DNA of 62,165 nucleotides, the filler included, from an uncultured virus (IMG/VR IMGVR_UViG_2049941000_000131) (Duplodnaviria; Heunggongvirae; Uroviricota; Caudoviricetes). It is 7 parts of one record of this genome, joined end to end, with 100 filler letters (N's around TTAATTAATTAA, not from the genome) between each part and the next. Parts side by side here need not be neighbours in the genome. Positions count along the whole stretch, not along the records: positions 21,146 to 50,398 come from IMGVR_UViG_2049941000_000131; 6 more parts are not named here. One strand, 5' to 3'. Below, piece after piece: positions 12,094 through 58,083 of this stretch (its first letter is position 1; each line of letters opens with the position of its first letter). The notes beneath the pieces were generated by a model that was given only the letters and a program-made list of their open reading frames with translations, was not told the DNA's origin and made no database searches. The translations under genes and the position numbers were made by a program.

Positions 12094-12172
12094 CGCTTTT
12101 TTTTAGATTTCTTGATAAATTAATGTACAAAGATTTAATTGAATTTTTGTATAAAATAACAAGAGCAGGGCA

Positions 12173-12781: not shown

Positions 12782-12989
12782 AGTCTGACCCCTCTTTCTC
12801 AATTTTCCCTTTTGCGACTTTCAACATTCGTGCAATCCACCGCGGAAAACTTTCTGGGTTAATAAGATAAAGATTTTCGGAAATAGAAATAGCCTCGGCA
12901 ACAAGAACAATGAATAATCCATACTGCCCGAAAAACGTTGCTAAACCGCCCAGAATTACGCTCCAGAGCCATTTAAACCAGTTGTCCAT
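12744..12989 (-). CDS. Phage holin family 4-like protein, apparently internally deleted
   Basis: N-terminal GG..TFFG helix joined directly to the C-terminal EAISISEN...P.W motif. Confidence 0.55.
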   Translation of the reverse strand: MDNWFKWLWSVILGGLATFFGQYGLFIVLVAEAISISENLYLINPESFPRWIARMLKVAKGKIEKEGSDYDETGNDDNTTK

Positions 12990-20154: not shown

Positions 20155-20269
20155 ANNNNNNNNNNNNNNNNNNNNNNNNNNNNNNNNNNNNNNNNNNNNT
20201 TAATTAATTAANNNNNNNNNNNNNNNNNNNNNNNNNNNNNNNNNNNNNNNNNNNNCTCAAAATATGTAA

Positions 20270-21045: not shown

Positions 21046-21790
21046 NNNNNNNNNNNNNNNNNNNNNNNNNNNNNNNNNNNNNNNNNNNNTTAATTAATTA
21101 ANNNNNNNNNNNNNNNNNNNNNNNNNNNNNNNNNNNNNNNNNNNNATCCCGGTTGTGGCAATAAAGCAATCTTTAAAGCCTGCCTGCTTTACCTTTTCAA
21201 GCTGCTTTTCGGCATTGGCTTTATTCTCAAAAGCTCCTACTTGTACTTTATACCATTTGTCAACCTTTGNNNNNNNNNNNNNNNNNNNNNNNNNNNNNNN
21301 NNNNNNNNNNNNNNNNNNNNNNNNNNNNNNNNNNNNNNNNNNNNNNNNNNNNNNNNNNNNNNNNNNNNNNNNNNNNNNNNNNNNNNNNNNNNNNNNNNNN
21401 NNNNNNNNNNNNNNNNNNNNNNNNNNNNNNNNNNNNNNNNNNNNNNNNNNNNNNNNNNNNNNNNNNNNNNNNNNNNNNNNNNNNNNNNNNNNNNNNNNNN
21501 NNNNNNNNNNNNNNNNNNNNNNNNNNNNNNNNNNNNNNNNNNNNNNNNNNNNNNNNNNNNNNNNNNNNNNNNNNNNNNNNNNNNNNNNNNNNNNNNNNNN
21601 NNNNNNNNNNNNNNNNNNNNNNNNNNNNNNNNNNNNNNNNNNNNNNNNNNNNNNNNNNNNNNNNNNNNNNNNNNNNNNNNNNNNNNNNNNNNNNNNNNNN
21701 NNNNNNNNNNNNNNNNNNNNNNNNNNNNNNNNNNNNNNNNNNNNNNNNNNNNNNNNNNNNNNNNNNNNNNNNNNNNNNNNNNNNNNNNNN

Positions 21791-34959: not shown

Positions 34960-36264
34960 TTATTCTTCTTTTAAAGTATTTTCGAGTATTTGCTTATATT
35001 CGTCCAAATGGTCAACGATTGCAGGCTTTATGTAAGGATGTGCAGGAACGTGTTTGCCGCTCCCTGCTTGAATATGCCCCATTTCAACATCAATTTGTTA
35101 TCATAAGGGCTTTTTATCCCTTATTTCTTACAGTTTCCTATCCTGTAAGGTCGGCGTACATCATCACCTTTTTTAGGTGTCGAGCACTCTTGGAGGGATT
35201 ATTGCTCCCTTAACGCTCACCCTCTACGCTCTACGGTGGCGGTTGGTCTTACCGCTTACCTCGGTATTAGCCTTTATTAAATAATTCATCAATCCCTATA
35301 AAACCGTTCCTGCTGTATCTTGCATAAATAGTTTTATAATCGAGTTCAAAGATTTCACACCATTGCATTAATGTCTTTGTTGCATTGCCAATCGTTATAT
35401 TGATATTAGTATCACGATTGTTGCATTGCTCTTCATTATTGCTCCAACGGCAATTTTCGGGCGAATAATTTTTATTGTTGTCAATTCTGTCAATAGTCAA
35501 ATCTTCCGAATACCCGTTATTTATAGACCACTCATAAAAAGCTGAAAAATCATCTTTCCACTCTTCGCAAATTGTTATGCCTCTTCCGCCATACCTATGA
35601 TACCTTGCGTTATTCTTATTATAACATCGGGCTTTCATTCCTTGCCATATGTTATATATCCTCTTCCCGCTTTGTTTATGGCTGTGATGAGCGGTCAAAT
35701 TCACATTGTCTTGTTCTTTCTTCAAGCAACCACAAGATTTGATAGCCCCACACTGTAAGCTATCAGAACGGGCAATCTTTAAATTCCCACAATCGCATTG
35801 ACAAATCCAATAAGTTTTACGACTTTTTTTATCAGCCAAACCTATTACTGTTAATCTGCCGAATTTTTTACCTGTAAGGTCATTCACTCTGTTGATGTTT
35901 TTCATTTTTTCGTTTCTCCTTTATGTTCCAAATTCTATATATATTGTACCATATTCGGAGAATTTTTTCAAGCGGCTTTTACCGATTTTGTTCGATTTTT
36001 CGATATATATTTCTATATAAAGGCGCAAGTTTTTTACGCAGCATATTCAACGTTCGTCCCGACATAAACAGTATATTCGCCTTTTCCCACTGCGTGAGCG
36101 ATAGAATTTCTTAACAAGCCTGTATCAACAGGGCATTTCATTTTTGCATAGCTTTCGGCTTTTAAACCAATCATTTCAAGAGCTTGTAAAATCGATTCTT
36201 CGGTGTATTTTTCAATATCTTTATTGATATTAATAGATACCGCATTTGTTCCGAGAGTTCCCAT
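34960..36264 (-). CDS. HK97 gp10-like protein split by a group I intron (exons 36264..36036 and 35090..34960)
   Basis: CPVDTG.LRNSI...VGTNVEYAA-Y-VEMG...PAHPYIKPAI is restored by splicing. Confidence 0.88.
35091..36035 (-). mobile_element. Group I intron with homing endonuclease
   Basis: 5' exon ends in U, intron ends in G, P1 GCGU/GCGC with U.G pair, structured core 35091-35266, frame restored. Confidence 0.88.
35267..35905 (-). CDS. Intron-encoded HNH-type homing endonuclease
   Basis: DLTG.KFGRLTV, W.C.CDCG, SCGC, YGGRGI..C.EW, TIDRIDNN.NY.P.NCRW. Confidence 0.9.
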   Translation of the reverse strand: MKNINRVNDLTGKKFGRLTVIGLADKKSRKTYWICQCDCGNLKIARSDSLQCGAIKSCGCLKKEQDNVNLTAHHSHKQSGKRIYNIWQGMKARCYNKNNARYHRYGGRGITICEEWKDDFSAFYEWSINNGYSEDLTIDRIDNNKNYSPENCRWSNNEEQCNNRDTNINITIGNATKTLMQWCEIFELDYKTIYARYSRNGFIGIDELFNKG

Positions 36265-37527: not shown

Positions 37528-38942
37528 TTCTTTTCAACCTTGCCTTTATTTTCTGTACCTTGTAACAGCTCGCTTTCATTATCAGGTATAGTTTTACCCT
37601 TATACCCTGTTGCAAGCCTTGAAAGGCTGTCTGCGTTCATTTTCTTTAGCATTTCTGCCGCTTTGTCACCGTCACCGAGAATTGTTAAAATTTTTTCTGT
37701 AACATAATCGGGGTCAAGATATTCAGCCGCTTGCAGAACTGTTTGTACATCCTCGTTGACATTAATTAGCATTGACCGTGTAAACGTTGGTTCGTCTTCA
37801 ACCCCTGCAACTGCTAAAATACCTTGAATAAATTCAATTACGCAATATTCAAAATCATCACACTTAATATTCAACGGTTCGTAAGCTGCTTTTATTTCCG
37901 TAGCTGTTGCCGCTCCGCTTGAAATTGTTTCAACATCAAGAGCCATTGCATCACGGTATAAATCTTTTTCAAGCCGTTTCAAAAGCGTTTCACGAGCGTC
38001 AAAAGGCGGCTGAATGCTGTTAGGTTGTACTGTCACGGCGTCATCGGTAACAACTGCGTGCAGTTCACGGACACGTTTCAAAAACTCAGCTAAATCAATA
38101 TCGTCCATGCCGCCAGCGTTTTGCAACGTCCAGTAAATAAAACTTGCTTCGTCAATCGTGTTAGCAAATCCCGATTTTACCAAATCAAAGCAATCAATCT
38201 GACTGCGAATATCATCTAAATCCGATTGATGTCGAGAATTTCCCCACATCGGAACAATGGGGAATGTTGGATAATTTTCGCCGTCATAAATCTCAACACC
38301 GCTTGCAATAGATGTACGAACTTTGAATTTATATGGTCTTTTCGGTTCTCTGACTTCGCCTGTGCCGTCTTTCCAAATAAACTCGGTATATCCGTCAATT
38401 TCGTATAATGTCGCTCTCAACGGCTTATTGGGAGCAATTTGCCAAAATCTTATCCCTGCTTTCATTGCTCCGTCTTCTTCATCGTAGAGCGGCACAAATT
38501 CAAGCAGTGTGAACATTTCAACGTGGTCAAGATTGAAAAAACCAAAAGCTTGACTATGCAAGGAAGCTTGTGTTGCTATTTTTTGTATTTGCGTATCAAA
38601 TGGATATTTCTTATTACCTAATTTGTCGCTTGTATCGCTTTTGCTCCAGCCGACACCGTTACCGTTTAAGAACTGTACTTTTTGAGTTACAAATCTATGT
38701 AGAAAATTTGACGGCATTTTATAATTGGCACTCCAAATATCGGGGATTTTTTCGCCTGTTGCTTTGTAAAGCCATTTTTGAAAACGTGTTATAGTGGTGT
38801 TTCTGCCCTCGTCATACTCTTTCCCGTCACGGGCTTTTGAATACAAATCGCTTGATTTATGTTGATTTATCGCCTGCAACACAAAGTCTATTCTGTTTTT
38901 CTCGTTATCGCCAACAGCGATTAAATCTTGATATGTGTACAT
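37524..38942 (-). CDS. Portal protein (SPP1 gp6-like)
   Basis: Size, position, PIVP..N....SDL....ID..D...S..AN. Confidence 0.85.
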   Translation of the reverse strand: MYTYQDLIAVGDNEKNRIDFVLQAINQHKSSDLYSKARDGKEYDEGRNTTITRFQKWLYKATGEKIPDIWSANYKMPSNFLHRFVTQKVQFLNGNGVGWSKSDTSDKLGNKKYPFDTQIQKIATQASLHSQAFGFFNLDHVEMFTLLEFVPLYDEEDGAMKAGIRFWQIAPNKPLRATLYEIDGYTEFIWKDGTGEVREPKRPYKFKVRTSIASGVEIYDGENYPTFPIVPMWGNSRHQSDLDDIRSQIDCFDLVKSGFANTIDEASFIYWTLQNAGGMDDIDLAEFLKRVRELHAVVTDDAVTVQPNSIQPPFDARETLLKRLEKDLYRDAMALDVETISSGAATATEIKAAYEPLNIKCDDFEYCVIEFIQGILAVAGVEDEPTFTRSMLINVNEDVQTVLQAAEYLDPDYVTEKILTILGDGDKAAEMLKKMNADSLSRLATGYKGKTIPDNESELLQGTENKGKVEKK

Positions 38943-39670
38943 TATGTATCACCTAAAATTCTCCATTTTGCAATCTCAAAATAATGTTCGTCAAGTTCAA
39001 AACCTATGAAATTACGGTTTGTATTTACACACGCAACGCCTGTACTTCCACTTCCCATGCAGTTATCAAGCACCGTTTCGCCCTCATTGGTGTATGTCTT
39101 TATGAGATATTCCAACAAATCAACAGGCTTTTGTGTCGGGTGTATGGGCTTATCTTTGGAACAGTTGCATTGTGCAAATTTTATCACATCAACAGGATAA
39201 CGGCTTCCGTCCTCACAAATTGTTTCACACAAATCCTGTTTTCCATAATTTGTACTTGTCTTATTATGTGCTGCACGATAACATTTATGACCGAATGTTT
39301 TTTGCGGATTATAAGTCGGGAGTTTATCATAAAAAATCAAGATGTTTTCGTGTGCTTTCAACGGCATTTTGTGAGAATTTAAATGCCCTGTCCCTTGTGC
39401 TTTCTGCCATATCCATTCATACCTAAACCATTTTCGATTTGATACAATCAAGTCAACGCAAAACGGCATTTGCGAAAACAGTACAATAGCTGCATTTGCT
39501 TTTATAATCCGTTTGTACTGTTCCCATAGTGCCTGCAAGTCTATTTTTTTATCCCATTTATTATTTGTTGTTCCATACGGCAAATCACATAAAATCATAT
39601 CAATTGAATTATCGGGAATATCTTTCATTAATTCTAAACAGTCGCCTTGCATTAATTTTGTGTTCGCCAT
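38942..39670 (-). CDS. N4/N6 DNA methyltransferase (beta class)
   Basis: GDCLE, DLPY, HPTQKP, LDNCMGSGSTG. Confidence 0.92.
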   Translation of the reverse strand: MANTKLMQGDCLELMKDIPDNSIDMILCDLPYGTTNNKWDKKIDLQALWEQYKRIIKANAAIVLFSQMPFCVDLIVSNRKWFRYEWIWQKAQGTGHLNSHKMPLKAHENILIFYDKLPTYNPQKTFGHKCYRAAHNKTSTNYGKQDLCETICEDGSRYPVDVIKFAQCNCSKDKPIHPTQKPVDLLEYLIKTYTNEGETVLDNCMGSGSTGVACVNTNRNFIGFELDEHYFEIAKWRILGDT

Positions 39671-39689
39671 ACAATTACCTCGCCGCTTC

Positions 39690-40895
39690 CTAATAAATAT
39701 CCCCATAAGCCCGTTTTACTCTTGCAATGTGTTTGGTTTTTACAAAATATCTCATACTGTCCATTAAATGGTCGTTCTCTTTTAACGGTTTTTCTGTTCC
39801 CTCTTCCCACACGTAAGATTCACATTCGTTTCTCCAATTTTTGAGTGTAGGTGAAAATTTAATCAGCCCTCTGTGCATTGCCGACGCTGTTTCTCTTATT
39901 CCATCTTCAACAGCATTATCAGCCGAACGGACTTTGCTCCAATTCTTTTTCTTGAGTAAAGCAATAAAAGAAGCCGCCGAGGGGTCGATAATCGTTTCAA
40001 GCTTTTCGCCCGGCAAAATATACGGTTCTACAAATTCATCCATATCTTTTCCGTATTCATCATCGGTTTTCTGCCTGTTGGTCGCTCTGCCACTGTAATA
40101 GTATTCATTTACCGCATACCATACACCGCCGTGTTTTTCCCAATATAACGCTGCAAATGGGTTCTGTGTACCATAGTCGATTGATAAACATTTAGCTTCT
40201 ATCGGAGTGTTGGGAGCTTCTGCAATTGCTTCTTGATACATTGGATATATTAAACCCTCTGCAAGCACCCATAAACCGAGGATAAACCGTTCATAAAAAA
40301 CACCTGTGTACTCACGTTTAATGTTTTCCACATAATCTCCAGGCAATGTGGAATTATCGTCAAGTAAAAATTTTACATCAAGCATATCAAGGCTATCTTG
40401 CCTGTCGATATAGTCCGTCTTTAACCAATGTGATGGACTATCAGGGTTAGTTGTTGCTATTAATTTAGCTTCAGGCAAACGCAAACGAGATAATAACATT
40501 GTAAAAAAATCTCTGGGGAACTGCGTAAGCTCGTCACAGTATGCACCTTGTAAAGTTAAACCTCTTATTTTTGCTTCACTCCGTGCATCATTTGCACCCT
40601 CTAAAAAAATTTTTCTGCCGAAAAGGTTGCCCTCTTTTGCCGACAAGCTAAAGGTAAAATTACTTTCTCCGACAAGTTCTTGCAAGAGCAACAGGCAGTT
40701 TCTTTTCAGAGTTGTTAGCGACTTTGCACACATCATATACAGCTTATCTTCGGGCATCGTTTTAACCCAAAACGCCCATAGAACAAGCGAAATCCACGTT
40801 TTTCCGCTTGAAACACTTCCCTCTAAAAGGTTAATCCTTTTCAGTTGGTTCGTCTGCCAGAGTGCCATTAGCTGTAGTTGTTTCTGCGTATACAT
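39690..40895 (-). CDS. terL: Terminase large subunit (PBSX/SPP1-like)
   Basis: GSVSSGKT Walker A, AYCDE Walker B, TTNP, IDYG, DPSA, DH.MD..RY. Confidence 0.93.
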   Translation of the reverse strand: MYTQKQLQLMALWQTNQLKRINLLEGSVSSGKTWISLVLWAFWVKTMPEDKLYMMCAKSLTTLKRNCLLLLQELVGESNFTFSLSAKEGNLFGRKIFLEGANDARSEAKIRGLTLQGAYCDELTQFPRDFFTMLLSRLRLPEAKLIATTNPDSPSHWLKTDYIDRQDSLDMLDVKFLLDDNSTLPGDYVENIKREYTGVFYERFILGLWVLAEGLIYPMYQEAIAEAPNTPIEAKCLSIDYGTQNPFAALYWEKHGGVWYAVNEYYYSGRATNRQKTDDEYGKDMDEFVEPYILPGEKLETIIDPSAASFIALLKKKNWSKVRSADNAVEDGIRETASAMHRGLIKFSPTLKNWRNECESYVWEEGTEKPLKENDHLMDSMRYFVKTKHIARVKRAYGDIY

Positions 40896-41238
40896 TATTT
40901 TTTAACCCATTTATCAAATCTGCAAGCTGTCCGTTTGCGGTATCGGTGTTTTCATACTGGATTTTATCCGACTGCCCTAAATAATTCTTTCCGAGAAATA
41001 TTGCCATTGCCGGAGACTTTTCAGCAAGTTTGAATTGTGAACGTCTAAGGCTCATTTTGCCCTTTGCCGAGTGCTTTTTAAATGCGTCCGCAAAATTCTC
41101 TTTATATGTGCGTTTGCACCAACGTTCTATTGTATCTGGAGAACAATCAAATGCTCCTGCAATCTCTTCAAGAGTGCATTGCAGACCGCAAAGGTTCTCG
41201 AACATTTTTTTATCAATTTCTTTTCTCGGTCTGCCCAT
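40831..41238 (-). CDS. terS: Terminase small subunit
   Basis: GRPRK, HTH, SLRR.Q..LA...MAIFLGKNYLGQ.D; directly upstream of terL. Confidence 0.8.
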   Translation of the reverse strand: MGRPRKEIDKKMFENLCGLQCTLEEIAGAFDCSPDTIERWCKRTYKENFADAFKKHSAKGKMSLRRSQFKLAEKSPAMAIFLGKNYLGQSDKIQYENTDTANGQLADLINGLKNNVYAETTTANGTLADEPTEKD

Positions 41239-41247
41239 TTAATCACC

Positions 41248-41307
41248 TCAATTCAATTTAACAGCCTTTTGCCCTGTGAATTTCTCCCAACGCCGAATGA
41301 TAACATC
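41248..41307 (-). pseudogene. Orphaned original 3' end of the ParB-methyltransferase gene
   Basis: DVIIRRWEKFTGQKAVKLN* with no start, directly after the HNH stop. Confidence 0.75.
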
Positions 41308-42052
41308 ACTCATTATTCCACCTTGCCTTCCATCCGTAATTGTCTGTTTCTTTATGGCATTCATGACATAGAGTTAAGCCATTATCAACATCAAACATCA
41401 ATTCTGGATATCTGCAACGCTCTTTTATGTGATGTGCCTCTATATTCCTTTTTCGTTGACCGCATTTCTGACAAGTAAAATTATCTCTCTTAAATACGGA
41501 CAACCGCCATTCTTTATATTCAGCACTCGTTCTTAATAACTCAGATTCTTTCGTTTTGCCACCTTGCCAAAAATGAGATTGTTCCCCCTTGCGTTCTCTG
41601 TATGCTAAATTTCTGCATTCATTTGAGCAATAGATTTTATTTCTTTTTGTGGATGTTTGAAACTTTTTTCCGCATATTGGACATTCTCTATTTTCTGTTG
41701 CCCTCTTGCTCCAACATTCCTTTGAACAATAAATCGTCTGCCTGTTTTTATGGTCGTGTATTGCTCGAAACTCTTTGTCACATACAGGGCAAGTTGCAAT
41801 TCTCGCTCTTTGCAAATGCGGATAATGCTTGCCTTTTTTACCATCTGTTTTTCTGTAATTATATCCACATTCTTTTGAGCAATATTTTTGGTCTAATCGT
41901 TCCGGATGAAACCATTTTCCGCACTCGCATTGATTCCATCCTTGAAATCTGCCTTTACCACAAGCATTACAAATCGTGTTTTTATTCTCCGGCTTTTCTG
42001 TTGTTTCATAACCGCATTTATTGCAAATCCATTTCTGCTCCACAATTACCAC
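41306..42052 (-). CDS. Free-standing HNH endonuclease with repeated CxxC/YCS..C zinc motifs
   Basis: WR..VF.RD.FTCQ.CG....AHHI......DVDNG.TLC..CH. Confidence 0.9.
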   Translation of the reverse strand: MVIVEQKWICNKCGYETTEKPENKNTICNACGKGRFQGWNQCECGKWFHPERLDQKYCSKECGYNYRKTDGKKGKHYPHLQRARIATCPVCDKEFRAIHDHKNRQTIYCSKECWSKRATENRECPICGKKFQTSTKRNKIYCSNECRNLAYRERKGEQSHFWQGGKTKESELLRTSAEYKEWRLSVFKRDNFTCQKCGQRKRNIEAHHIKERCRYPELMFDVDNGLTLCHECHKETDNYGWKARWNNE

Positions 42053-42086
42053 CTCTTGATAATTATATCACATTAAATGAATTCTG

Positions 42087-43265
42087 TCAATGCCCCGCTA
42101 TCTCTGTGTATGGTATCTTTTTCCCATCCTTAATCAAGAACACATCTGCATCCGAACCCTTAAAGTTTATATATCTTTGCAAAATCACGGAAACATATTT
42201 GGGATCGAGTTCAACCATATAGCATTTCCTGTTTAGCTGTTCACAGGCTATTAGTGTGCTACCACTACCACCGAAACAGTCTAATACTATCTGCTGTTTA
42301 TCTGTTGTATGTCTTATTGCGTTTGCTGATAATTCAACAGGTTTTTGTGTCGGATGTTCATAATCATTCGCATTGTCTTTGCCTATGCTCCACACACTAC
42401 CTATACGCTTTTCTCGGATTTCCTCGCCATTATTGGCACATAAAATCACTTCATAATCAGTTGAAAATGTATGTTTCAAATCTCCAATGCCACCGCCACC
42501 TTTATCCCATATAACCATATTGGATAATTCAAAATATTGTTTGAACAGTGGCAACCATTTATCCAAGACTTTCCAAGTGGTACATATCATCACAAATCCT
42601 TTTACTCTTCCGAGCAAGTTTGGGAAAAAGTTTAATATTTTATCGTCATTCTCCAATACATCAAATTTCTCTGATTTTGTTCGCATATTGGACTGATAAT
42701 TGTAGCCGTATGGCGGATCGGTAAACACCATATTAGCCTTTACCCCATCCATAAGCCTATCAATAACCGCAACATCCGTAGAATCTCCGCATATAAGTTT
42801 GTGGTCGCCTAACTGCCACAAATCGCCAATTTTACATCTTGTTTCTACTTCTTCGGGAACTTCATCTTCTACAATTTCTTCTGTGGTTTTGTCATCGTCA
42901 AAATTCAAATCAAATCCAAAATCTGACATATCAATATCAAAAATGCCGTCAAGCTCTTCACCGAGTAAATCAAAATCCCATTCGGCAAGCTCCCCAACCT
43001 TGTTGTCTGCAAGCCTAAAAGCCTTTATTTGCTCGTCATTTAAATCATCGGCAATCACGCACGGAACTGTTTTCAAGCCGAGCTTCTTTGCGGCTTTTAG
43101 CCTTGTGTGACCGCAAACAACATTGTTTTCCTTGTCAATCACAATCGGAACTTTAAAGCCGAACTCACGAATAGAATTTGCAACAGGGTCAACCGCTCCG
43201 TCATTTTTTCGAGGGTTGTTCGCATATGGAATCAATTTATTTATATCAACATCAATTAAGTTCAT
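42087..43265 (-). CDS. ParB/Srx-domain + N6-adenine DNA methyltransferase fusion
   Basis: PY.NNPR.N, EFGF.VPI, GHTRL.AA, AFRLADNK; DPPY, HPTQKP, D.FGGSGST. Confidence 0.92.
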   Translation of the reverse strand: MNLIDVDINKLIPYANNPRKNDGAVDPVANSIREFGFKVPIVIDKENNVVCGHTRLKAAKKLGLKTVPCVIADDLNDEQIKAFRLADNKVGELAEWDFDLLGEELDGIFDIDMSDFGFDLNFDDDKTTEEIVEDEVPEEVETRCKIGDLWQLGDHKLICGDSTDVAVIDRLMDGVKANMVFTDPPYGYNYQSNMRTKSEKFDVLENDDKILNFFPNLLGRVKGFVMICTTWKVLDKWLPLFKQYFELSNMVIWDKGGGGIGDLKHTFSTDYEVILCANNGEEIREKRIGSVWSIGKDNANDYEHPTQKPVELSANAIRHTTDKQQIVLDCFGGSGSTLIACEQLNRKCYMVELDPKYVSVILQRYINFKGSDADVFLIKDGKKIPYTEIAGH

Positions 43266-43371
43266 ACAAACACCTTTTTTAATTTTATTTGCACAAAACC
43301 GCCCTTTCTGACCTTTAGGGCGGTTTATACAATTAATCCAAAATAAAGAGAAATCCAAAAATGTAAACACG

Positions 43372-43446
43372 TGGTAGCAAGAGTAGGATTTGCACCCACA
43401 ATCTCCCAATTATAAGTCGGGTGTTTTGCTGTTAAACTATCTCGCC
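43372..43446 (-). tRNA. tRNA-Ile(UAU)-like gene with encoded CCA
   Basis: GGCGAGA/TCTTGCT acceptor, CCCGA-CTTATAA-TTGGG anticodon arm, GTGGG-TGCAAAT-CCTAC T arm, ACCA end. Confidence 0.75.
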
Positions 43447-43532
43447 ATATTTGCAGGCTGGTTTGAAACGCAGCCTGCATTTTTACACCAGAAAGAAGAT
43501 AATATGAACGACTGACTACCGCCCATGATTTA

Positions 43533-43570
43533 ATTATACTACAACTAAAACGGACAAAGCGGACAACTTT
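43533..43570 (-). promoter_or_regulatory. Late promoter with tandem TTGTCCG activator sites
   Basis: AAGTTGTCCGCTTTGTCCGTTTTAG..TATAAT; same motif at 57126-57161. Confidence 0.7.
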
Positions 43571-43610
43571 TCGTGTTGTCTGCTTTGCCCTTTGTGCTTA
43601 TTCGCATGCA

Positions 43611-43778
43611 TTAATCGCCCAATACTTTCGCCTTTACCCGTTCGTACAGCTCTTCTACCTCTTTCGGCGAGAGAGTCGTTCGCACTACCTTTACCAACTG
43701 TTCTTTCGTAAGCCAAATGCCTTTTTTGGGACTTCCAATCAGGTATAATGTTGGCTTGCTATTTTTATTATTATTCAT
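43611..43778 (-). CDS. 55-aa hypothetical protein
   Basis: MNNNKNSKPTLYLIG..; overlaps stop of upstream gene; below ORF-track cutoff. Confidence 0.5.
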   Translation of the reverse strand: MNNNKNSKPTLYLIGSPKKGIWLTKEQLVKVVRTTLSPKEVEELYERVKAKVLGD

Positions 43779-44085
43779 TTTTCACCCGCTTTATAACATC
43801 ATCGGCGGTAAGCCAGCCTGCAACTGAGTTTCCATCTTTCTCCTCGTCAACGATATCGCCGTATATCTCAAGCAACCCTTGTTCATATCCGTATGAACCG
43901 TAGTGGCAAATCGCATCCCATTTAAAACAGCCTTCATTATCATAAACAACCACTTGATTGCGCCCAAGATCTATTTCATTGCCGCCAGGGAATGCCACAA
44001 TGTTGGTTTCCTTAATTCGTTCGTAATTTGCTCCGCTCTTGTCCAGATACTCAACTAATTTTTCCATTTCCGTCATTGCCTTCAC
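43771..44085 (-). CDS. Conserved phage hypothetical protein
   Basis: WDAICH.GSYG.E.GLLEI...V.G.LTA..V. Confidence 0.75.
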   Translation of the reverse strand: MKAMTEMEKLVEYLDKSGANYERIKETNIVAFPGGNEIDLGRNQVVVYDNEGCFKWDAICHYGSYGYEQGLLEIYGDIVDEEKDGNSVAGWLTADDVIKRVKNE

Positions 44086-44441
44086 CTCTCATTTTTCTGT
44101 ATATACCTATGACACATCTTTCTAATGCTTTCCTGCGTATTCCCACCGCCCACTCTCTGAGCGATATCCCTCCATCTCCGCCCTTCGATGTAGTGCATTC
44201 TCAGCATTACTCCAACATACTCGTCACACCGCTGTAAATAGACTTCTACAGCGTTCAGTCTTTGCTTTAGGTATTCTATATCCTTTTGCAGTTTATCACG
44301 CTCGTTTCGGCTTATTTCGGCTTTTTCGGGGTCTTTGTTTTCGATAGCCTGAATTTTCAGAGTTAACTCATCAAATTCATCTTCAAGCAGCAATTTTCGC
44401 CCTTTAAGCTTTCGATACTGCCGTAATTGGTTAATGGTCAA
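44082..44441 (-). CDS. RinA/ArpU-like late transcription activator
   Basis: L.QY..L; L..HYI.G..W..IA...GG.NT..S.R....RY; just upstream of packaging module. Confidence 0.8.
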   Translation of the reverse strand: MTINQLRQYRKLKGRKLLLEDEFDELTLKIQAIENKDPEKAEISRNERDKLQKDIEYLKQRLNAVEVYLQRCDEYVGVMLRMHYIEGRRWRDIAQRVGGGNTQESIRKMCHRYIQKNER

Positions 44442-44445
44442 AATA

Positions 44446-44676
44446 TCAACCCTCTTTCTCTTTGATAGCTTTCGCCCTCTCCTCTATCCCCTTTGCGATA
44501 CACAGACATTCCATTTTTTGCTCAAAGAGCATGGATAAATCCTTTTCAAGCTTCATTCGTTCAATGTTGCCGAGCTTTGCTTTACGCTTCGTTTTTGTTT
44601 GCTGGATGCGGTGCTCGACTGCCTCTGCTTCCTGTCGGTATTCGTTCGCCCAGTTAAAATAGTCTTCCGAAGTCAT
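44446..44676 (-). CDS. Hypothetical protein (homolog 56529..56768)
   Basis: DY..WANEY.QE.EAVEHRI in both. Confidence 0.75.
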   Translation of the reverse strand: MTSEDYFNWANEYRQEAEAVEHRIQQTKTKRKAKLGNIERMKLEKDLSMLFEQKMECLCIAKGIEERAKAIKEKEG

Positions 44677-44990
44677 TTATTTAACCAACCTCTTTCCTTG
44701 TAAGCTCTGTAAAAACCGTAGCTATAATTCGTTCCGTGTTCGGCATTGTAAGCACGTCTTTCAAACTCAAGAAGAACCAAAGGGTCATTAGACATTTTCT
44801 TGTTTCGACCTCGTTTTTTCGCCGTTTGAATCTTCTCGTCAAGGTTCTTGATGTCAATTCCCCTAGGTCTGCCCGGTTCTTTCTCTTTCAGTTCTCTTTG
44901 GTATTGTCGGTTCTTCTCCCGGCACTTGTTGCACATTCTGTAAACGGTATTTTCGTTAAACTCTTTTCGACATCTGGTGCATATTCTCAT
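44673..44990 (-). CDS. Zinc-finger protein (C-terminus homologous to 56041..56412)
   Basis: CTRC..CNKC; YN..H....SYG.Y. Confidence 0.7.
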   Translation of the reverse strand: MRICTRCRKEFNENTVYRMCNKCREKNRQYQRELKEKEPGRPRGIDIKNLDEKIQTAKKRGRNKKMSNDPLVLLEFERRAYNAEHGTNYSYGFYRAYKERGWLNK

Positions 44991-45007
44991 TTTATCACCT
45001 TTCCCTT

Positions 45008-45799
45008 TTACAATCCGATGTTTCCGTAAGTTTTTTTGAGCCATTCAAAAAACTTCGGGTACATCTGCTTATAATGCCACAACATACCATTTCTGATAAT
45101 CGCCGTGTTGTATAGCATTGTAATCTCGTTACGGTTTACCTGCCTATCGATATACGGATAATCGTAAATAGACAAATATTTTAAATTATTGCTAAAAATA
45201 TAACTCCATATATCAATATTAGTAAAATTAAGCAGCGGACAGCAAGTAACCGATTGTCGATTTTCGGTTTGATAAATCGCACCTTTTTGATTTAAAACAA
45301 TCCGCCTACGCTTGCTTTCGTCTTTTCGCATTCCGATTATATTTAAATCAATGTTATTTTCTTCTTCAAACTCTTTCGACTTTTTTACATAATCATAATT
45401 AGTTTGATTGAAAATACGCTTTTCTTCTTCGTTTTCTGGGAACAGCGTGAATCTGCCACACTGCTCCCAACAGTCAACCTCGCCCAAACAATCTATAATT
45501 TGATATTTTAATCCGTGTAAGTCGGCATAATATTTCAGCAATTCAATGTTTTCCTCGGGCGTTTCGACATCTGTACAAATGCCATATTTAAAAAACATCA
45601 ACGTACCTTTAAACCCTGCCTTTACAGCGATGTCTATCAATACCACACTATCCTTTCCGCTGCTAAAGGATAGTGCAGCATTGGTTGAATCATCTAACGC
45701 TGTCTTGACAGTTTCGGTCGCTAATTTTACTTTGCGTTTAAAATTAGCCATTTTAGCCGAAATAAGGTACATCTCCTTATCGTCGTTAGATAGGTACAT
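45008..45799 (-). CDS. cysH: Type IV-B-associated CysH/PAPS-reductase-like PP-loop protein
   Basis: SFSSGKDS, GMRKDES.RR, PL..F...DIW.YI; lacks the CC..CxxC cluster ligands; overlaps csf3. Confidence 0.88.
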   Translation of the reverse strand: MYLSNDDKEMYLISAKMANFKRKVKLATETVKTALDDSTNAALSFSSGKDSVVLIDIAVKAGFKGTLMFFKYGICTDVETPEENIELLKYYADLHGLKYQIIDCLGEVDCWEQCGRFTLFPENEEEKRIFNQTNYDYVKKSKEFEEENNIDLNIIGMRKDESKRRRIVLNQKGAIYQTENRQSVTCCPLLNFTNIDIWSYIFSNNLKYLSIYDYPYIDRQVNRNEITMLYNTAIIRNGMLWHYKQMYPKFFEWLKKTYGNIGL

Positions 45800-46460
45800 A
45801 ACATAACCTCTGATTTATAGTTTTCCAGTACGGCGGTCTTATTGCATACTCCATAATTGGACAGTCATAGGTCTTGTCTGCTTTTTCAACCTCGATTGGT
45901 CGCATAAGACCGTATTTGGGATGCTCAGTTGTATAATCCTCCTCGATTTCTTCAACGTCCCACCTGTCAACGATTCCGAAGCCCATAGCAGTCTTTTTGC
46001 CAACACCAATCATAAGGTTTAACAGTTCTTCGATTTTATCTTTTTTGCCAACAGCATAAAAAGTGAGGATTCCGTTTTTAACTGTTCGGATAAGTTGTGG
46101 GTTGCGATAAGCTCTATACAAGCCTACACTGTCGCTTATTATCCCCTTGTCCATATCGAGATAGTCTAATTTATCGCTAGCAAAAAAGTCGGGACGTTTG
46201 TTGTAATGCTCTACAATCTTGTCTATCTCTTGATAAACTGCCTTACTTGCCGCCCATCTGTTGCCCTCTAGATGTACAAGCGGTAAACCAACATATCCGA
46301 TTTGCTCCGGCTTATACACTCCCTCCAGAACGTGAGGAGCGTGTTTCAAAAACCAAGCGTGATAAAGTATACTGTCAAACATCAAGATTCCGTCTGCACT
46401 GCTAAATCTGCCATCTAAAAGATGAGCTGTAATCTTAAGCGGTACGCATTTACTTGGCAT
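45786..46460 (-). CDS. csf3: Type IV Cas5-family protein Csf3
   Basis: PL.ITA.L, D.IL, LPL, W.AS, FYAVG...I..LL, GKK...GFG.V..W, RPI, RPPYW. Confidence 0.85.
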   Translation of the reverse strand: MPSKCVPLKITAHLLDGRFSSADGILMFDSILYHAWFLKHAPHVLEGVYKPEQIGYVGLPLVHLEGNRWAASKAVYQEIDKIVEHYNKRPDFFASDKLDYLDMDKGIISDSVGLYRAYRNPQLIRTVKNGILTFYAVGKKDKIEELLNLMIGVGKKTAMGFGIVDRWDVEEIEEDYTTEHPKYGLMRPIEVEKADKTYDCPIMEYAIRPPYWKTINQRLCYVPI

Positions 46461-47307
46461 TTTTACCACTTCCCAAAATATTAATATATTCTGCACCCTC
46501 GGATTTGATAAAATCCGAGTAAAGGTTAATAAGTTGCTCTACCTCTTTTGATATTGCGACTTCGCCATTATTGACAGAGATTAAATTATCTCCAACGACA
46601 GCATTAAATGTGCCAAAGCCCTTACTTGACATACCTCCGAGCTTGGGAAGCTTAAACCATTCGGCTAAAGCGGAGTAAAACGCACCCATTTCAAGGTCAG
46701 TTGCATTATTAAAAAAATAAATATCCTGCACAAACTCCGTACCCTCTGCCATATACTGCACAGCAAAACGCATTTGTGTACTCGCTTTCGCTTTTTTATC
46801 TTCTTCCGGGTCTGTCATATACCCGGCAAGTATATCGTCTTTGCCGTCATCGGTACGTGTAAACTCAATCTCGTCAATCAAGTTTTTCCAGCTAACCTCT
46901 GTCATTTTTTCACCTAACATCTCATAGGTCTCTTTGACGAGAGGATAGAGATTGCCGACAATCATCTTGCCCGCCATAATCATATCACCCAAGCCGCCGC
47001 CAAAAAGCGACACAAACGGGAAATGTTCTCTTACTGATTTAGCCTTAGCGACATCATTCTTCATAGTGCCGTTGAGATTTCCGCCGCTGAAAAGTACATT
47101 AAAAATCTCTTTGTTGACCTTGACACCAAGAGTATCGAGAAGATACTTAGCACCATTATCTCTGAGTGTGCCTCTTACGCTGTTTGCCGTGATAATCGGC
47201 AAGCGACCGTTAGAGGTCTTAATTGTCTGAAAATAGCTACCTGTGCTTGCTGTTTCGCCAATATGAGATACCGGAGCAGTTGTTGTATACTTAATCCTCA
47301 ATTTCAT
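46450..47307 (-). CDS. csf2: Type IV Cas7-family backbone protein Csf2
   Basis: P.SH, LPII.ANS.RG.LRD, LFSGG, P.VSLFGG, G...VG, LGG.S.KGFG glycine loop. Confidence 0.88.
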   Translation of the reverse strand: MKLRIKYTTTAPVSHIGETASTGSYFQTIKTSNGRLPIITANSVRGTLRDNGAKYLLDTLGVKVNKEIFNVLFSGGNLNGTMKNDVAKAKSVREHFPFVSLFGGGLGDMIMAGKMIVGNLYPLVKETYEMLGEKMTEVSWKNLIDEIEFTRTDDGKDDILAGYMTDPEEDKKAKASTQMRFAVQYMAEGTEFVQDIYFFNNATDLEMGAFYSALAEWFKLPKLGGMSSKGFGTFNAVVGDNLISVNNGEVAISKEVEQLINLYSDFIKSEGAEYINILGSGKNAK

Positions 47308-47725
47308 CTTCAATTCCCTCCATCTTTTCTCTCTGAATACGTTCTCTTACAAGCATTGTGAGTAACATACCTTCATTCTCAAAAATCGAAAGCAGGTCAT
47401 CATCTTCAAAAATATCAATTTTGAAGTCCTTGACATCTGCCGACACAATAACGCTTCCGTCCGGCTGCATTACAAGCCCGCTCTCATCTTTAAGATATGC
47501 AGGCTTAACACTACTAATGTTGCCAAGCTTGCAAAAATGATTTACAAACTCCGCTACATTAGTCGCCTTAAGAGCTGCACCTCTTATGTAACTTGTAAAC
47601 CTATTCCACGTTTCAAGCCCGTTGAGGCTACTCTGCTGATTCCTGCTGCGATAACACGCATAAAGAATCAACGCTGCCTTTCCTCGTTCTGCTGATTCAG
47701 TAGTAAATCCAAACTGCATAAACAT
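47291..47725 (-). CDS. cas11: Type IV-B small subunit (Cas11-like)
   Basis: About 145-aa helical ORF between csf1 and csf2; W..F...IR.AA......F...FC; call rests mainly on synteny. Confidence 0.7.
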   Translation of the reverse strand: MFMQFGFTTESAERGKAALILYACYRSRNQQSSLNGLETWNRFTSYIRGAALKATNVAEFVNHFCKLGNISSVKPAYLKDESGLVMQPDGSVIVSADVKDFKIDIFEDDDLLSIFENEGMLLTMLVRERIQREKMEGIEDEIED

Positions 47726-48378
47726 TCTTCCTCCGTTTTTTTCAATTTTTGCCCGCAATAAAGCGGGATCTGTATTTCGCGGCTTTTTTGTAACTCTGAG
47801 TTTAAAATACTCAGAACCTTTTCGCCTAAAGAAAAACCCAGTTTTTGCATGACCGCAAACGGAATTTCACCGTTTGACAATGCTGTTTTGCTCGCACCCA
47901 AAGTTATTAAACTCTCAACAAATCCGAACAACTGTTTCATTCGGTCGGGAGTAGTGTAAATTACTTCTGTTTCGAGGTTCACGGCATATCTATCCGCACT
48001 ATAATTAACCTGCGAGCGGTAAAACAAGTGCTTTTTTTGGCTTGTCGTTATGATGAATCTAAACGGCGGATTTTGCCGTTTGCACAACTCGTCTTTAAGC
48101 TCTCTAACATTGATAAGTCTAATTCCATTACAATCGACAATGTAATTGTAAAAGTACAGACTAAAAAGTTTTGAACACTCAGGGCAAATATACTCGCCAA
48201 TGTAAGCGTAATCCGTAAAATTAGAGCTAATTATTTTTTTAGCTTTAACACCTTCTTTTTTGCTTTGATTGCATATAGGGCAGTCAAACTCTACATTTTC
48301 CACCGGATATTCTTTGATTTTTACCAGTTTTACAATGTCATTCCCTTTGCCGTCTCTGGTTTTGTATTCAATTTCCAA
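47668..48378 (-). CDS. csf1: Type IV large subunit Csf1 (Cas8-like)
   Basis: CPIC...NFTD...ICPEC, PPF....T.SQKKHL; TTG start after GGAGG. Confidence 0.8.
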   Translation of the reverse strand: MEIEYKTRDGKGNDIVKLVKIKEYPVENVEFDCPICNQSKKEGVKAKKIISSNFTDYAYIGEYICPECSKLFSLYFYNYIVDCNGIRLINVRELKDELCKRQNPPFRFIITTSQKKHLFYRSQVNYSADRYAVNLETEVIYTTPDRMKQLFGFVESLITLGASKTALSNGEIPFAVMQKLGFSLGEKVLSILNSELQKSREIQIPLYCGQKLKKTEEECLCSLDLLLNQQNEERQR

Positions 48379-48391
48379 TAATTCATTCCCT

Positions 48392-48505
48392 CCTAAAATC
48401 GCCGTAAATCCCCTGTAAGCCGTTTTACTCTCAAAAGGTAAAATTACTCGCTTAAATTGTTTTCGCCCAAATTTGGGGTATTCTCGCTTGTTTTGGAGGG
48501 GTTCT
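48392..48505. other. Phased A/T-tract element (relatives at 56405-56512, 52441-52520, 54075-54165)
   Basis: About 10-bp alternation of A/T and G/C blocks around a (G)GTAAAATTA-like core; aligns by eye with reverse complement of 56405-56512. Confidence 0.45.
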
Positions 48506-48713
48506 CGGTGTATCGGGTGTTCCACTTTTCTAAAACTCTATCTTTGCAGCATTCCAATTCGCCCCAAGTGCATAGTCCTGCAATTATATCTAACCTTTCA
48601 ACATTACATCTGTCGCACTTGATTTTTACATAAATCCTCTCCGCAGATGAATTTATTAGCAAGAAAGGCTTTGCCCCACAAAACGGGCACGGCTTCAACT
48701 TAACTTTACTCAT
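48444..48713 (-). CDS. Lar-like (restriction alleviation) zinc-ribbon protein
   Basis: LKPCPFCG....C..C....WNTR. Confidence 0.75.
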   Translation of the reverse strand: MSKVKLKPCPFCGAKPFLLINSSAERIYVKIKCDRCNVERLDIIAGLCTWGELECCKDRVLEKWNTRYTENPSKTSENTPNLGENNLSE

Positions 48714-48816
48714 TGCTATCATCCTTTCCGACCTGAAGCGCAGCCATAAACAGCACGCCAAAAACCACTCCAAGGGTTACTCCAAAAATTAAACCTAATG
48801 TAAACGCTTTAATCAT
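48706..48816 (-). CDS. Small membrane protein (homolog 55775..55888)
   Basis: MIKAFTLGLI.G...G..FG...MA.LQVGKDD. Confidence 0.7.
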   Translation of the reverse strand: MIKAFTLGLIFGVTLGVVFGVLFMAALQVGKDDSNE

Positions 48817-49081
48817 TGCTATCACTCCAATCTATCGCTTGACCGCACCATTTGCAAAATTTATAGCCACTGTGCAAAGAACCTTTATTTGTTAGTTGCT
48901 TGTTGCAATTAGAGCATCTAACAGTAGATGTGGTTATTATCACTTTCTTCGGTATCTGCTTTTCAAGTGCTTTAATAGTAAAATCAAGCGCTTTTTCCTG
49001 CGTTCTTTTCACTCCGGCGCTCAGGTCTTCTGTGTCAATCACAATGCACTTTAAAACGTTACCTGCTTCTTCAATCGTCAT
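48809..49081 (-). CDS. Zinc-ribbon phage protein (homolog 55501..55782)
   Basis: ALEKQIPKK...C.NC...FC..CGQAIDWS. Confidence 0.75.
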   Translation of the reverse strand: MTIEEAGNVLKCIVIDTEDLSAGVKRTQEKALDFTIKALEKQIPKKVIITTSTVRCSNCNKQLTNKGSLHSGYKFCKWCGQAIDWSDSND

Positions 49082-49370
49082 TTTCTCACCCTCTTAAATC
49101 TCTTTCCATAATGCTTTCTTGACAAAATCCAGTCGACATACTCCATAAATGACGGAGCGTTTGAATAATCTACTGTACTCCAACGATAAATCGGTGTGTA
49201 CATTGTATCACTCTCCTTTCTGCGTGACCGTATAACCCTCGTAAGCAATCACCGCACGAAAATATTCAAGGTTTCCTACCCATTCGCAATAATTATCATC
49301 AACACATTCACAAGAAGCTTCATGCTCGCTGTTAAAATACGAACAATATCCACGGTAATGNNNNNNNNNN

Positions 49371-49853
49371 CCCGTTTTCCTCTTTTTTGCGAATACGTTC
49401 CTGTATTTCATCATCTTCATAATTCGCTTCAATCATGTACAAATCATATTCGGGAGCAGTTACCCCGTTAAGGTTGTTCGTGTCTGTTGCATAAAAGATT
49501 TTTTCGCCGTCAATAAAAATTTTGTATCCGCAGTTTGGCACATTGTGCGACAGTTCAACCGCTGTTATTTGCAGATCCTGATTATAAATATTTGCCAAAC
49601 CTGGAGTAAAAATATCTATTCTCCATTTCTGCACACCACAGGATATTAAATCTTTAAGCAGCCAGTCGCAACACCCGAAACGCAGCGTAGGACGCATTTT
49701 TGCAAGCTTCTTAATCGTTGACGGATAAAAATGATCGCCATGTATGTGCGTTAACAATACAAGCTGCAATCCGCTTACATATGGAGATAACTGCTTGTAA
49801 TTTACTCCGCAGTCTATCAGCAGGCGGTTGTTCAAAACAACCGCATTGCCTTT
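49371..49853 (-). CDS. Metallo-beta-lactamase-fold hydrolase (partial)
   Basis: LIDCG, THIHGDH, SHNVP, YATDT, IEANY. Confidence 0.88.
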
Positions 49854-49863
49854 NNNNNNNNNN

Positions 49864-50077
49864 AACATTCCTTTTCAGCTTTAACATTCAGAAAAACGGC
49901 GGCAAACTGCCTGTAATAGTTGATTCTGATGTTGAAGATTTGCCGGAAGAATTAGTTACTATCTCAAAAAAGCCGAATTTGGCGGCAATCGAGAAAAGGC
50001 TGAAAGAAGAACCGAATACAGATATTTGCCTTTACGCTCACTTCGGTGAGCGTGGGGAAAGCCTTAGGATTCGTTAG
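49864..50077 (+). CDS. Siphovirus Gp157-family protein, C-terminal fragment
   Basis: FSFNIQKNGG..P...AH...RGESLRIR. Confidence 0.7.
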
Positions 50078-50088
50078 GAGGTGATTTT

Positions 50089-50290
50089 ATGGGCAATATG
50101 GAAATTTACGAAAAATCGAGAGAATGTCCTCCAAATGCCCTTAAAACTATCGCCGCAGGAAGACTTAAAGGAAAGTCGGACATCAATCCGATGTGGCGAA
50201 TCAAAATGTTGACGGAGCTTTTTGGAGCGGCAGGAATCGGCTGGTACTACGAGATTACAAAACAGTGGACTGAAATTGGTGCAAACGGTG
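50089..50290 (+). CDS. Rad52/Sak-like annealing protein, N-terminal fragment
   Basis: I..GRLKG.SDINPMWRI..LTE.FG..G.GW. Confidence 0.6.
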
Positions 50291-50498
50291 NNNNNNNNNN
50301 TCCGATTTTTAAACAAATCACACGTTCATTGTCATAGTTAAAACCGTGATCTTCATATTCAAGCTTAGTTGTTTGAACAATCTTGAAACAATCGGTATNN
50401 NNNNNNNNNNNNNNNNNNNNNNNNNNNNNNNNNNNNNNNNNNTTAATTAATTAANNNNNNNNNNNNNNNNNNNNNNNNNNNNNNNNNNNNNNNNNNNN

Positions 50499-57325: not shown

Positions 57326-57397
57326 AGCGGAGTAGAGCAAAGGTAGCTCGCTAGGCTCATAACCTTGAGGCTGTCGGTTCGAGTCCGACCCCCGCAA
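57326..57397 (+). tRNA. tRNA-Met(CAU), initiator-like, somewhat degenerate
   Basis: GCGG..CCGCA acceptor with 1:72 mismatch, CTCATAA loop, GTCGG-TTCGAGT-CCGAC; no encoded CCA. Confidence 0.82.
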
Positions 57398-57820: not shown

Positions 57821-58083
57821 AGTGAAAAAAATTGCTCTGTTGGAGAACAATATGTTTTAANNNNNNNNNNTTCCATAAATCTTTATCGGGTATTTCACCG
57901 TTCAAAAGCTTTTCGTAAGAAGCTTTATTGAATGCCTTGCTGTATTTGTCAGCGTGAGCTAACATCTGAGCTTTGCTCCAATAAATCACTTTTTTAAATC
58001 CGTTGATGTATTCAAACATAGCATAATAGCCTATTGTCGGGGTTTTCTCACGCTCGTCAACATCCTGAATTGGNNNNNNNNNN

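Follow-up and report, generated by a model that had tools for sequence, protein, structure and literature searches.

What does a CRISPR-Cas effector cassette without an array do in the genome of a tailed phage? The question is raised by five genes on the minus strand of an uncultured Caudoviricetes virus (IMG/VR IMGVR_UViG_2049941000_000131), of which a stretch of 62,165 nucleotides (nt), filler included, was analysed; this whole stretch is called the window, and positions are counted along it unless another locus is named. An earlier note on the same DNA had read these genes as a csf1-cas11-csf2-csf3-cysH cassette of subtype IV-B, the only CRISPR-Cas subtype for which neither guide nor function is known. 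The analysis presented here indicates that the cassette is almost certainly a complete, array-less subtype IV-B effector module. Comparison with its relatives suggests, moreover, that the first four genes form a conserved block to which different cysH-like enzyme genes have been joined.

Identity of the cassette

The five open reading frames (ORFs) lie head to tail between 45008 and 48525, placed as the earlier note had them, and all five are intact (Table 1). From csf1 to the cysH-like gene, the successive overlaps are 91, 23, 11 and 14 nt, and the cysH-like gene shares 37 nt with the next gene downstream. The start of csf1 appears best placed at the TTG at 48378, because an AGGAGG lies 10 nt before it, because the alignments of homologues set in at residues 43-58 of the long ORF (at 33 in L005, and further along in the distant L016 and in L019, which is cut by its contig), and because an independent metagenome contig has, upstream of this TTG at 48402, a 10-nt deletion by which the longer frame would be disrupted.

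According to PADLOC, the first four proteins belong to type IV families: Csf1 to Csf1_0_IV (1.4e-32), Cas11 to Cas11_2_IV (4.4e-32) and to a 'putative small subunit of type IV' (1.4e-31), Csf2 to Csf2_0_IV (3.3e-62) and Csf3 to Csf3_0_IV (1.1e-38). The NCBIfam model of Csf1 (TIGR03114) is matched at 6.3e-8, under its cut-off, and the family profile of Csf1 finds type IV-A Csf1 weakly in the PDB (0.016). Residues invariant among 18 Csf1 sequences are C33, C36, C65 and C68, which make up a four-cysteine zinc ribbon, and P105, F106, K115, K116, H117 and L118. Searches of Pfam, NCBIfam and PDB sequences with Cas11 gave no match. Csf2 matches the Pfam RAMPs family above the curated cut-off (2.2e-8), and its family profile finds in the PDB the Cas7c of 11fs (2e-21) and the IV-B Csf2 of 7jhy (chain 7jhy_e, 3e-10). 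The AlphaFold model of Csf3, built on 19 sequences, has a mean predicted local distance difference test score (pLDDT) of 83.7; its top three PDB matches are the type IV-A Csf3/Cas5 chains 8rc3_F, 7xg1_B and 8rc2_F (template modelling score, TM, 0.60-0.68; E 1e-9 to 3e-8), followed by Csm4 and Csm3 RAMPs, and the Csf3 family profile also matches chains of type IV-A complexes in the PDB. Csf2 and Csf3 both have conserved glycine-rich loops, and both fall in PHROGs labelled 'unknown function' (22746 at 1.2e-81 and 34599 at 1.5e-70, respectively).

The gene set by which subtype IV-B is recognised is therefore present, namely Csf1, the Csf2 and Csf3 RAMP subunits, a Cas11-like small subunit and an adjacent cysH-like gene, and the canonical set proposed in the earlier note is supported by the PADLOC and Pfam matches. 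The motifs it had named are conserved: the four cysteines, PF and KKHL of Csf1, the glycine loops of Csf2 and Csf3 and the PP-loop of the CysH-like protein. The RAMP fold, chosen beforehand as the check on which the assignment could fail, is found for Csf3 by the superposition of its model on type IV-A Csf3 chains and for Csf2 by the match of its profile to type IV Cas7 chains.

Csf1 has a further conserved motif near its C-terminus (residues ~200-212, window about 47740-47780), Q-I-P-L-Y, which reads Q-L-A-L-F in distant members. It is reminiscent of the bacterial sliding-clamp-binding pentapeptide.

Relatives of the cassette

Homologues of Csf2 number 415 at E<=1e-3. A profile made from 21 Csf2 homologues led to 14 further viral contigs, 11 contigs of Clostridia metagenome-assembled genomes (MAGs; labelled Ruminococcus, Ruminococcaceae, Subdoligranulum, Lachnospiraceae and Ruminiclostridium) and 44 metagenome contigs, which together make up 69 related loci. 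A 25,348-base IMG/VR viral contig (G001) is 100% identical over the cassette. Among GenBank phages, a nucleotide search with the cassette gave no match and a protein search matched Skermania phage SPI1 alone. The nearest relative lies in a Ruminococcus MAG (L017; Csf2 92% identical). Of the 25 viral and MAG loci, 24 keep the order csf1-cas11-csf2-csf3, as do all metagenome loci long enough to reveal it; the exception, L016 (Csf2 31% identical), has cysH following csf1, and no Cas11 was detected in it. A conserved accessory gene upstream of csf1 was considered and rejected, the upstream ORFs of 50 loci falling into 25 clusters.

The module is selectively maintained, since dN/dS relative to L017 is 0.028 for cas11, 0.068 for csf2 and 0.091 for csf3 (dS being saturated, no value can be estimated for csf1), the reading frames are intact, dozens of cassette residues are invariant across loci 40-90% identical, and the module recurs in 69 loci. 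Cattle-gut metagenomes from several studies contain the cassette stretch. One independent run from this habitat has a 3,654-base contig that covers 44851-48514 with 8 differences. About 9% of positions differ in a downstream contig of the same run (44305-44760), and an upstream contig matches closely save for a diverged 96-base patch (48848-48943). The cassette may thus be shared between phage variants, or these contigs may reflect a mere effect of strain assembly.

Exchange of the cysH-like gene

A PAPS_reduct gene belongs to the cassette in 53 of 55 loci, that is, in 23 of the 25 viral and MAG loci and in all 30 metagenome loci of sufficient length, the remaining 14 of the 44 stopping too early for the gene to be assessed. 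These cysH-like genes make up three families, A (the type of the window), B and C, which are 23-27% identical to each other. At least 8 changes of CysH type are needed on a concatenated tree of the four Csf genes (52 loci), the minimum possible being 2. All 8 changes are forced by well-supported branches; shuffled labels give a mean of 14.6 changes, and none of 200 shufflings was as low as the observed value. Single-gene trees give 8-9 changes, and approximately unbiased (AU) tests reject the alternative groupings (p = 1.6e-7, 4.5e-5 and 1e-150). In the clearest pair of loci, L032 and L003, the Csf1, Cas11, Csf2 and Csf3 proteins are 89, 94, 92 and 88% identical, whereas the CysH-like proteins are 27% identical; at the DNA level, identity is 73-99% from csf1 to csf3, 27-45% over cysH alone and 61-79% just downstream.

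Two relatives depart from this composition. L015 has no enzyme gene after csf3. In L017, the slot after csf3 (11486-12871) holds a gene for a 246-aa (amino acid) protein and a QueC-like PP-loop gene (Pfam 1.1e-15), followed by the terminase small subunit gene. The 246-aa protein has no Pfam or PHROG match and a TGT-like structure (TM 0.76); viral clusters surround it in the Atlas, and in one of them 17% of the members have DpdA. DpdA is a lead only. This DpdA-like/QueC-like pair is found in none of the 44 metagenome loci.

The pattern of swapping suggests that the Csf block is the conserved part of the module and the CysH-like enzyme an exchangeable one. At a broad scale, cysH is described as having 'co-diversified' with IV-B (PMC7038947). 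The fine-scale swapping of cysH-like genes is a new point, to be set alongside this published co-diversification.

The CysH-like enzyme

The fifth protein matches Pfam PAPS_reduct at 3.3e-18 (66.8 bits, the cut-off being 22.5) and, weakly, BrxP in PADLOC. Among 18 family members the invariant residues are S46, G48, K49, D50 and S51, which form the PP-loop S-x-G-K-D-S, and G156, R158, E161, S162 and R165, which form a G-x-R-x-x-E-S-x-x-R motif; no cysteine is invariant in these 18 sequences. The model (pLDDT 81.7) has the PP-loop ATP-pyrophosphatase fold, with TtuA, CysD, PAPS reductases and TilS as the best PDB folds (E 6e-10 to 1e-6); the nearest folds are those of PP-loop enzymes acting on tRNA bases or nucleotides. 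The motif and the Rossmann-like alpha/beta/alpha fold together place the protein among the PP-loop ATP pyrophosphatases. It has the fold and the PP-loop in common with TtuA, TilS, CysD, the PAPS reductase CysH, DndC and QueC, but it is without an invariant cysteine.

A true PAPS reductase (CysH) was accordingly rejected, as the 18 sequences have no invariant cysteine that could be the conserved catalytic one. The same observation rules out that the protein performs thiosulfonate chemistry as true CysH and DndC do, following an argument made in PMC8175902, where CasCysH is held to be incapable of the sulfur chemistry of CysH or DndC and an adenylating ATP alpha-hydrolase is regarded as likelier. 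On its motifs and its predicted fold, the CysH-like protein of the window may well be a PP-loop enzyme of this kind, an ATP alpha-hydrolase by which a substrate is adenylated.

A second, larger PAPS-reductase-like gene lies on another contig of the window (3419-4567, minus strand; 382 aa; PHROG 424 at 1.3e-25; weak BrxP match), and a PAPS-reductase-like gene is also found 1.4 kb upstream of the cassette of L020 (6620-7519). Both are distinct from the cassette enzyme.

Arrays, other cas genes and guide RNAs

The earlier note had seen no cas1/2, cas6, dinG or repeat-spacer array, and none has emerged in the readable part of the window. A repeat scan, which did detect a real array in L042, found no CRISPR-like array, and PADLOC gave no match for Cas1, Cas2, Cas4, Cas6 or DinG, nor for any other Cas or helicase model, among the 73 other ORFs; these absences hold for the readable part only, the window being incomplete, interrupted by N runs that could hide small features, and made of several contigs. 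An Rfam scan of 40000-50400 returned tRNA only and no candidate guide RNA. The 65-nt gap before csf1 is the one that carries the 10-nt deletion in another sample.

The repeat scan of the first 25 related loci found no array either. Among the 44 metagenome loci there is one true array, in L042 (37-1871), with eleven 33-base repeats and 33-34-base spacers; 1 of the 69 related loci therefore has an array within reach, and this array does not belong to the cassette. The L042 array ends about 120 bases from an integrase gene, after which come a zinc-ribbon gene, Cro/CI-type helix-turn-helix (HTH) genes and csf1, the cassette starting 4.2 kb on. Its 10 spacers have no match beyond 12-16 nt to the cassette loci of this analysis. 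Its repeat looks to us like a type I-C repeat. A cognate IV-B array was rejected, given the position of the array outside the integrase and the lysogeny module and the absence of a spacer match; in the simplest reading, it probably belongs to the host and adjoins the attachment site of the prophage.

Phage context

The contig that carries the cassette spans 21146-50398 and is free of N between 23870 and 49360; in this N-free stretch the cassette is accompanied by genes for TerS/TerL, portal, major capsid, major tail, a 944-aa tape measure and Dit. The ungapped linkage with terminase, capsid and tail genes that the earlier note had described is thus real, and the siphophage setting is confirmed, since these structural genes share the N-free stretch of the cassette. 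The cassette and the flanking phage genes are on one strand, overlapping or abutting. A Lar-like gene is directly upstream; downstream follow two small ORFs, a PHROG-36 regulator, a tRNA-Ile(TAT), a ParB-methyltransferase, an HNH gene and the terminase. As to the late activator that had been placed just after the cassette, a gene of the PHROG-36 family does stand there, and PHROG-36 regulators occur within 3 kb downstream in 8 of 15 related loci (terminase genes in 7 of 15); the gene of the window matches only a 'transcriptional regulator' family, at 4.4e-8. A scan for consensus promoters and terminators did not rise above shuffled expectation and found no consensus promoter or strong terminator between the cassette and its neighbours.

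Table 1 Features of the cassette and of its surroundings in the window
Feature	Position	Strand	Details
csf1, type IV large subunit	47668..48378	-	236 aa from TTG 48378; ORF open to 48525
cas11, small subunit	47291..47758	-	155 aa
csf2, Cas7 backbone subunit	46450..47313	-	287 aa; alternative ATG at 47307
csf3, Cas5 subunit	45786..46460	-	224 aa from ATG 46460; ORF open to 46496
cysH-like PP-loop enzyme ('CasCysH')	45008..45799	-	263 aa
Lar-like restriction-alleviation gene, directly upstream of cassette	48444..48773	-	Pfam Lar_restr_allev 1.2e-8, above cut-off; PHROG 599 at 4.8e-11
Putative late transcriptional regulator, downstream of cassette	44082..44441	-	PHROG 36 'transcriptional regulator' 4.4e-8
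ParB-domain DNA methyltransferase	42087..43409	-	PHROG 498 at 5e-108; PADLOC MTase_II 2.5e-80
Terminase large subunit	39690..40895	-	PHROG 2 at 1.7e-39; same N-free stretch

The related cassettes sit in different phage backbones, with terminases from three PHROG families; one of them (L010) is found on a contig of 122 kb that encodes DnaB, primase, SSB and DNA polymerase of its own. The 15 flanks that were annotated place the cassette among replication, nucleotide-metabolism, DNA-modification or packaging genes. Many relatives are prophages, on MAG contigs of 53-144 kb or with integrases nearby, and in L042 the cassette directly follows a Cro/CI-type switch. The phage of the window would itself be temperate, and it belongs to a lineage of cattle-gut Clostridia phages, its host being probably Ruminococcus or a member of the Oscillospiraceae.

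The tRNA-Ile(TAT) of the window (43372-43446, minus strand) is found 1.5 kb downstream of the cassette; the longest ParB-methyltransferase ORF overlaps it with its 5' end, and the true start of that gene is probably downstream of the tRNA. The same tRNA is found at 8257-8331 of L017, just upstream of csf1; a link between tRNA and cassette was nonetheless rejected, the window and L017 being the only places where it lies near the cassette (1 of 25 related loci scanned). A tRNA-Met is at 57326-57397. An orphan type II-like DNA methyltransferase gene lies between TerL and portal, and HNH endonuclease genes are found beside the terminase and ahead of the head genes (all among 38942-39706, 41306-42052 and 35267-35905).

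The window is made of at least seven contigs, joined at 237-336, 1952-2051, 4613-4712, 20156-20255, 21046-21145 and 50399-50498 by 44 N, a 12-base linker with stops in all frames and 44 N, and it contains many shorter N runs. Because it consists of joined contigs, the replication genes beyond 50499 may come from the same phage or from another one. Some functions are duplicated (two DnaC-like loaders, two PHROG-36 regulators), and more than one phage could have been binned into the window. An exact 50-base direct duplicate around a 10-N gap (58024-58073 and 58122-58171) is probably an artefact of assembly or scaffolding.

Possible functions of the module

A sponge for crRNA (CRISPR RNA), the loading of non-CRISPR RNA and directed adenylation are hypotheses already in the literature (PMC7038947, PMC7937560, PMC8175902). 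In the IV-B complex of Mycobacterium sp. JS623, the reported structure has intertwined Csf2 and Cas11 filaments on RNA that is ~55-60 nt long and heterogeneous in sequence (PMC7937560). By analogy, the Csf2 and Cas11 of the window would polymerise along an RNA about 55-60 nt long, with Csf3 and Csf1 capping the filament. The module would be expressed with the early/middle lytic genes, the Csf ribonucleoprotein being its conserved RNA-binding or sensing part and the CysH-like enzyme its exchangeable catalytic output, which would adenylate or modify a nucleic acid held or found by the filament. The phage would benefit from the outcome when it confronts host defences or rival elements. A conserved sensor with swapped effectors is the usual pattern in defence systems, and the enzyme is read as the output because the conserved Csf block with its swapped enzyme mirrors that pattern. 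Built on analogy, sequence and structural models, this lytic-cycle mechanism, in which a Csf ribonucleoprotein presents or finds nucleic acid for an exchangeable PP-loop enzyme, is favored tentatively, with a chance that we put somewhat below even.

Several observations weigh against this reading or against its premises. The swapping among families 23-27% identical could equally mean that the enzyme never touches the Csf complex, and the Csf part can persist without the enzyme, because L017 and L015 have no PAPS_reduct gene beside csf3. The groups compared in the AU tests were named after identity tables or another tree had been seen. Transcription of the cassette with the early/middle lytic genes, and not from the prophage, is suggested by gene order only; the low-depth contigs from RNA-library runs X18-X20 over parts of cysH, csf3 and csf2 cannot show transcription, and two of these runs are probably DNA. 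Finally, the Csf proteins stay below the NCBIfam equivalog cut-offs (TIGR03114-6: cas8u_csf1, cas7_csf2 and cas5_csf3, with 32.5 against 140, 88.9 against 130 and 54.2 against 140 bits), although the matches of Csf1, Csf2 and Csf3 are significant below that level.

One possibility would be that the Csf filament works as an RNA sponge with an anti-CRISPR effect, soaking up host crRNAs or other guides, the CysH-like protein being an auxiliary that, for example, marks the captured RNA. The idea has been raised in structural and comparative papers (PMC7937560, PMC7038947), and it agrees with the heterogeneous RNA bound by the IV-B complex (PMC7937560) and with the counter-restriction genes that adjoin the cassette (the Lar-like gene and orphan methyltransferases). 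The MAGs with related prophages mostly have type I systems, which also speaks for it: Cas3 is above the cut-off in 4 of the 5 host MAGs and Cas1 in 3. Nevertheless, CRISPR in 4 of 5 hosts is not distinctive, Cas9 occurs in 1 of the 5, and one host MAG (G005) has neither Cas1 nor Cas3 above the cut-off, MAGs being incomplete; this host content is compatible with several readings and decides none. Five conserved genes would, moreover, be costly for an anti-CRISPR, which PMC7038947 deems unlikely, and sequestration alone leaves the near-universal enzyme (53 of 55 loci) unexplained. A sponge is thus an unlikely, if still serious, explanation.

Alternatively, the CysH-like enzyme, positioned by the Csf complex, could alter the replicating phage DNA and so let it escape from restriction. 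The PAPS-reductase family includes DndC and the BREX protein BrxP (PMC8175902), BrxP being the weak PADLOC match of the cassette enzyme. The slot of L017 holds the DpdA-like lead and the QueC-like gene, which correspond to enzymes of 7-deazaguanine DNA modification, and the flanks of the cassette contain methyltransferase or Lar-like genes, both in the window and in 7 of 15 annotated loci (L012, L013, L017, L021, L024, L025 and L027). Yet the enzyme has no invariant cysteine for sulfur chemistry, the solved IV-B complex binds RNA, and the two L017 genes, absent from the 44 metagenome loci, may be an independent neighbouring module, in which DpdA is itself only a lead (17% of one Atlas cluster, no Pfam match). 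Modification of the phage DNA is therefore judged quite improbable.

A bolder version of the favored mechanism would make the IV-B Csf filament a lytic sensor or scaffold with a plug-in modifying enzyme, which would be any of the three CysH-like families or the DpdA-like/QueC-like pair, and would have it carry out RNA-templated modification of RNA or DNA as a counter-defence. This is a long shot; if true, it would give CRISPR-Cas systems a function, RNA-guided modification, that is not known for any of their types.

The cassette could also be a prophage-encoded defence that guards the lysogen from other phages or plasmids by means of crRNAs borrowed from host arrays. Type IV-A is described as acting in plasmid-plasmid conflict and as able to use spacers acquired in trans, many of the relatives are in long MAG contigs or beside integrases, and the 11-repeat array of L042 is just outside a prophage integrase. 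That array, however, is the only one near any of the 69 loci, the integrase and the lysogeny switch stand between it and the cassette, and its 10 spacers match none of the loci of this analysis. The cassette lies inside the lytic early/middle block and not in a moron position, and Cas6 was found neither in the window nor, above the cut-off, in any of the 5 host MAGs. Defence of the lysogen consequently appears very doubtful. Lastly, a decaying or functionless CRISPR-Cas remnant, which the lack of array, nuclease and adaptation genes might suggest, is scarcely credible in view of the dN/dS of 0.03-0.09, the five intact frames, the dozens of invariant residues and the 69 loci.

Relation to known systems and significance

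The same csf1, cas11, csf2, csf3 and cysH-like genes make up the IV-B system of the Mycobacterium sp. JS623 megaplasmid (PDB 7JHY), and both systems are without array, Cas6 and helicase; the mycobacterial system, however, is on an actinobacterial plasmid and has larger, distantly related proteins, plasmid IV-B Csf2 proteins being at most 32% identical to that of the window. A viral csf1-cas11-csf2-csf3-cysH set is reported in a Fuxivirus of Bathyarchaeia which, unlike the family of the window, has a mini-array, and the same paper points out that type IV systems had been reported before from prophages and from several lytic phages (PMC10848311). The cultured Skermania phage SPI1 (KR011061) has the full five-gene set: its Orf40-43 match type IV Cas8/Cas11/Cas7/Cas5 models at 2e-28 to 1e-66 and its Orf44 matches PAPS_reduct at 1e-8, all being labelled 'hypothetical' in the record; it infects an actinobacterium, and its Csf2 is 29% identical to that of the window. 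Phage-, prophage- and archaeal-virus-borne IV-B systems are thus already in print, and the window adds no new kind of system.

Type IV-A complexes (PDB 8rc2, 8rc3, 7xfz/7xg1), on whose Csf3/Cas5 chains the Csf3 model superposes, come with DinG, Cas6/Csf5 and a CRISPR array and are without Cas11 or CysH. The best sequence match of the Csf2 profile among solved structures is the 'Cas7c' of type IV-C (PDB 11fs/11hc/11hd). Type IV-C also has Cas11, but it is chromosomal and without a cysH-like gene, and its large subunit is a Cas10-like HD nuclease, that of the window being a 236-aa zinc-ribbon Csf1. Going by the shared subunit name, these entries are presumably the complexes of PMC13676074. In that 2026 paper, the name Cas7c is used for a type IV-C complex, and the function and full architecture of IV-B are said to remain unclear (PMC13676074); a search of the literature on IV-B, CysH and CasCysH found no functional resolution.

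The clade to which the cassette belongs is large, compact and well conserved in gut Clostridia phages (69 related loci, 415 Csf2 homologues), and it contains what amount to natural experiments: near-identical Csf backbones joined to three different CysH-like enzymes, one relative with a deazaguanine-type pair and one without an enzyme gene. Together with the cultured phage SPI1, these swap variants offer material from which the role of the enzyme and its need for the Csf complex could be learned, and they make the function of subtype IV-B more testable.

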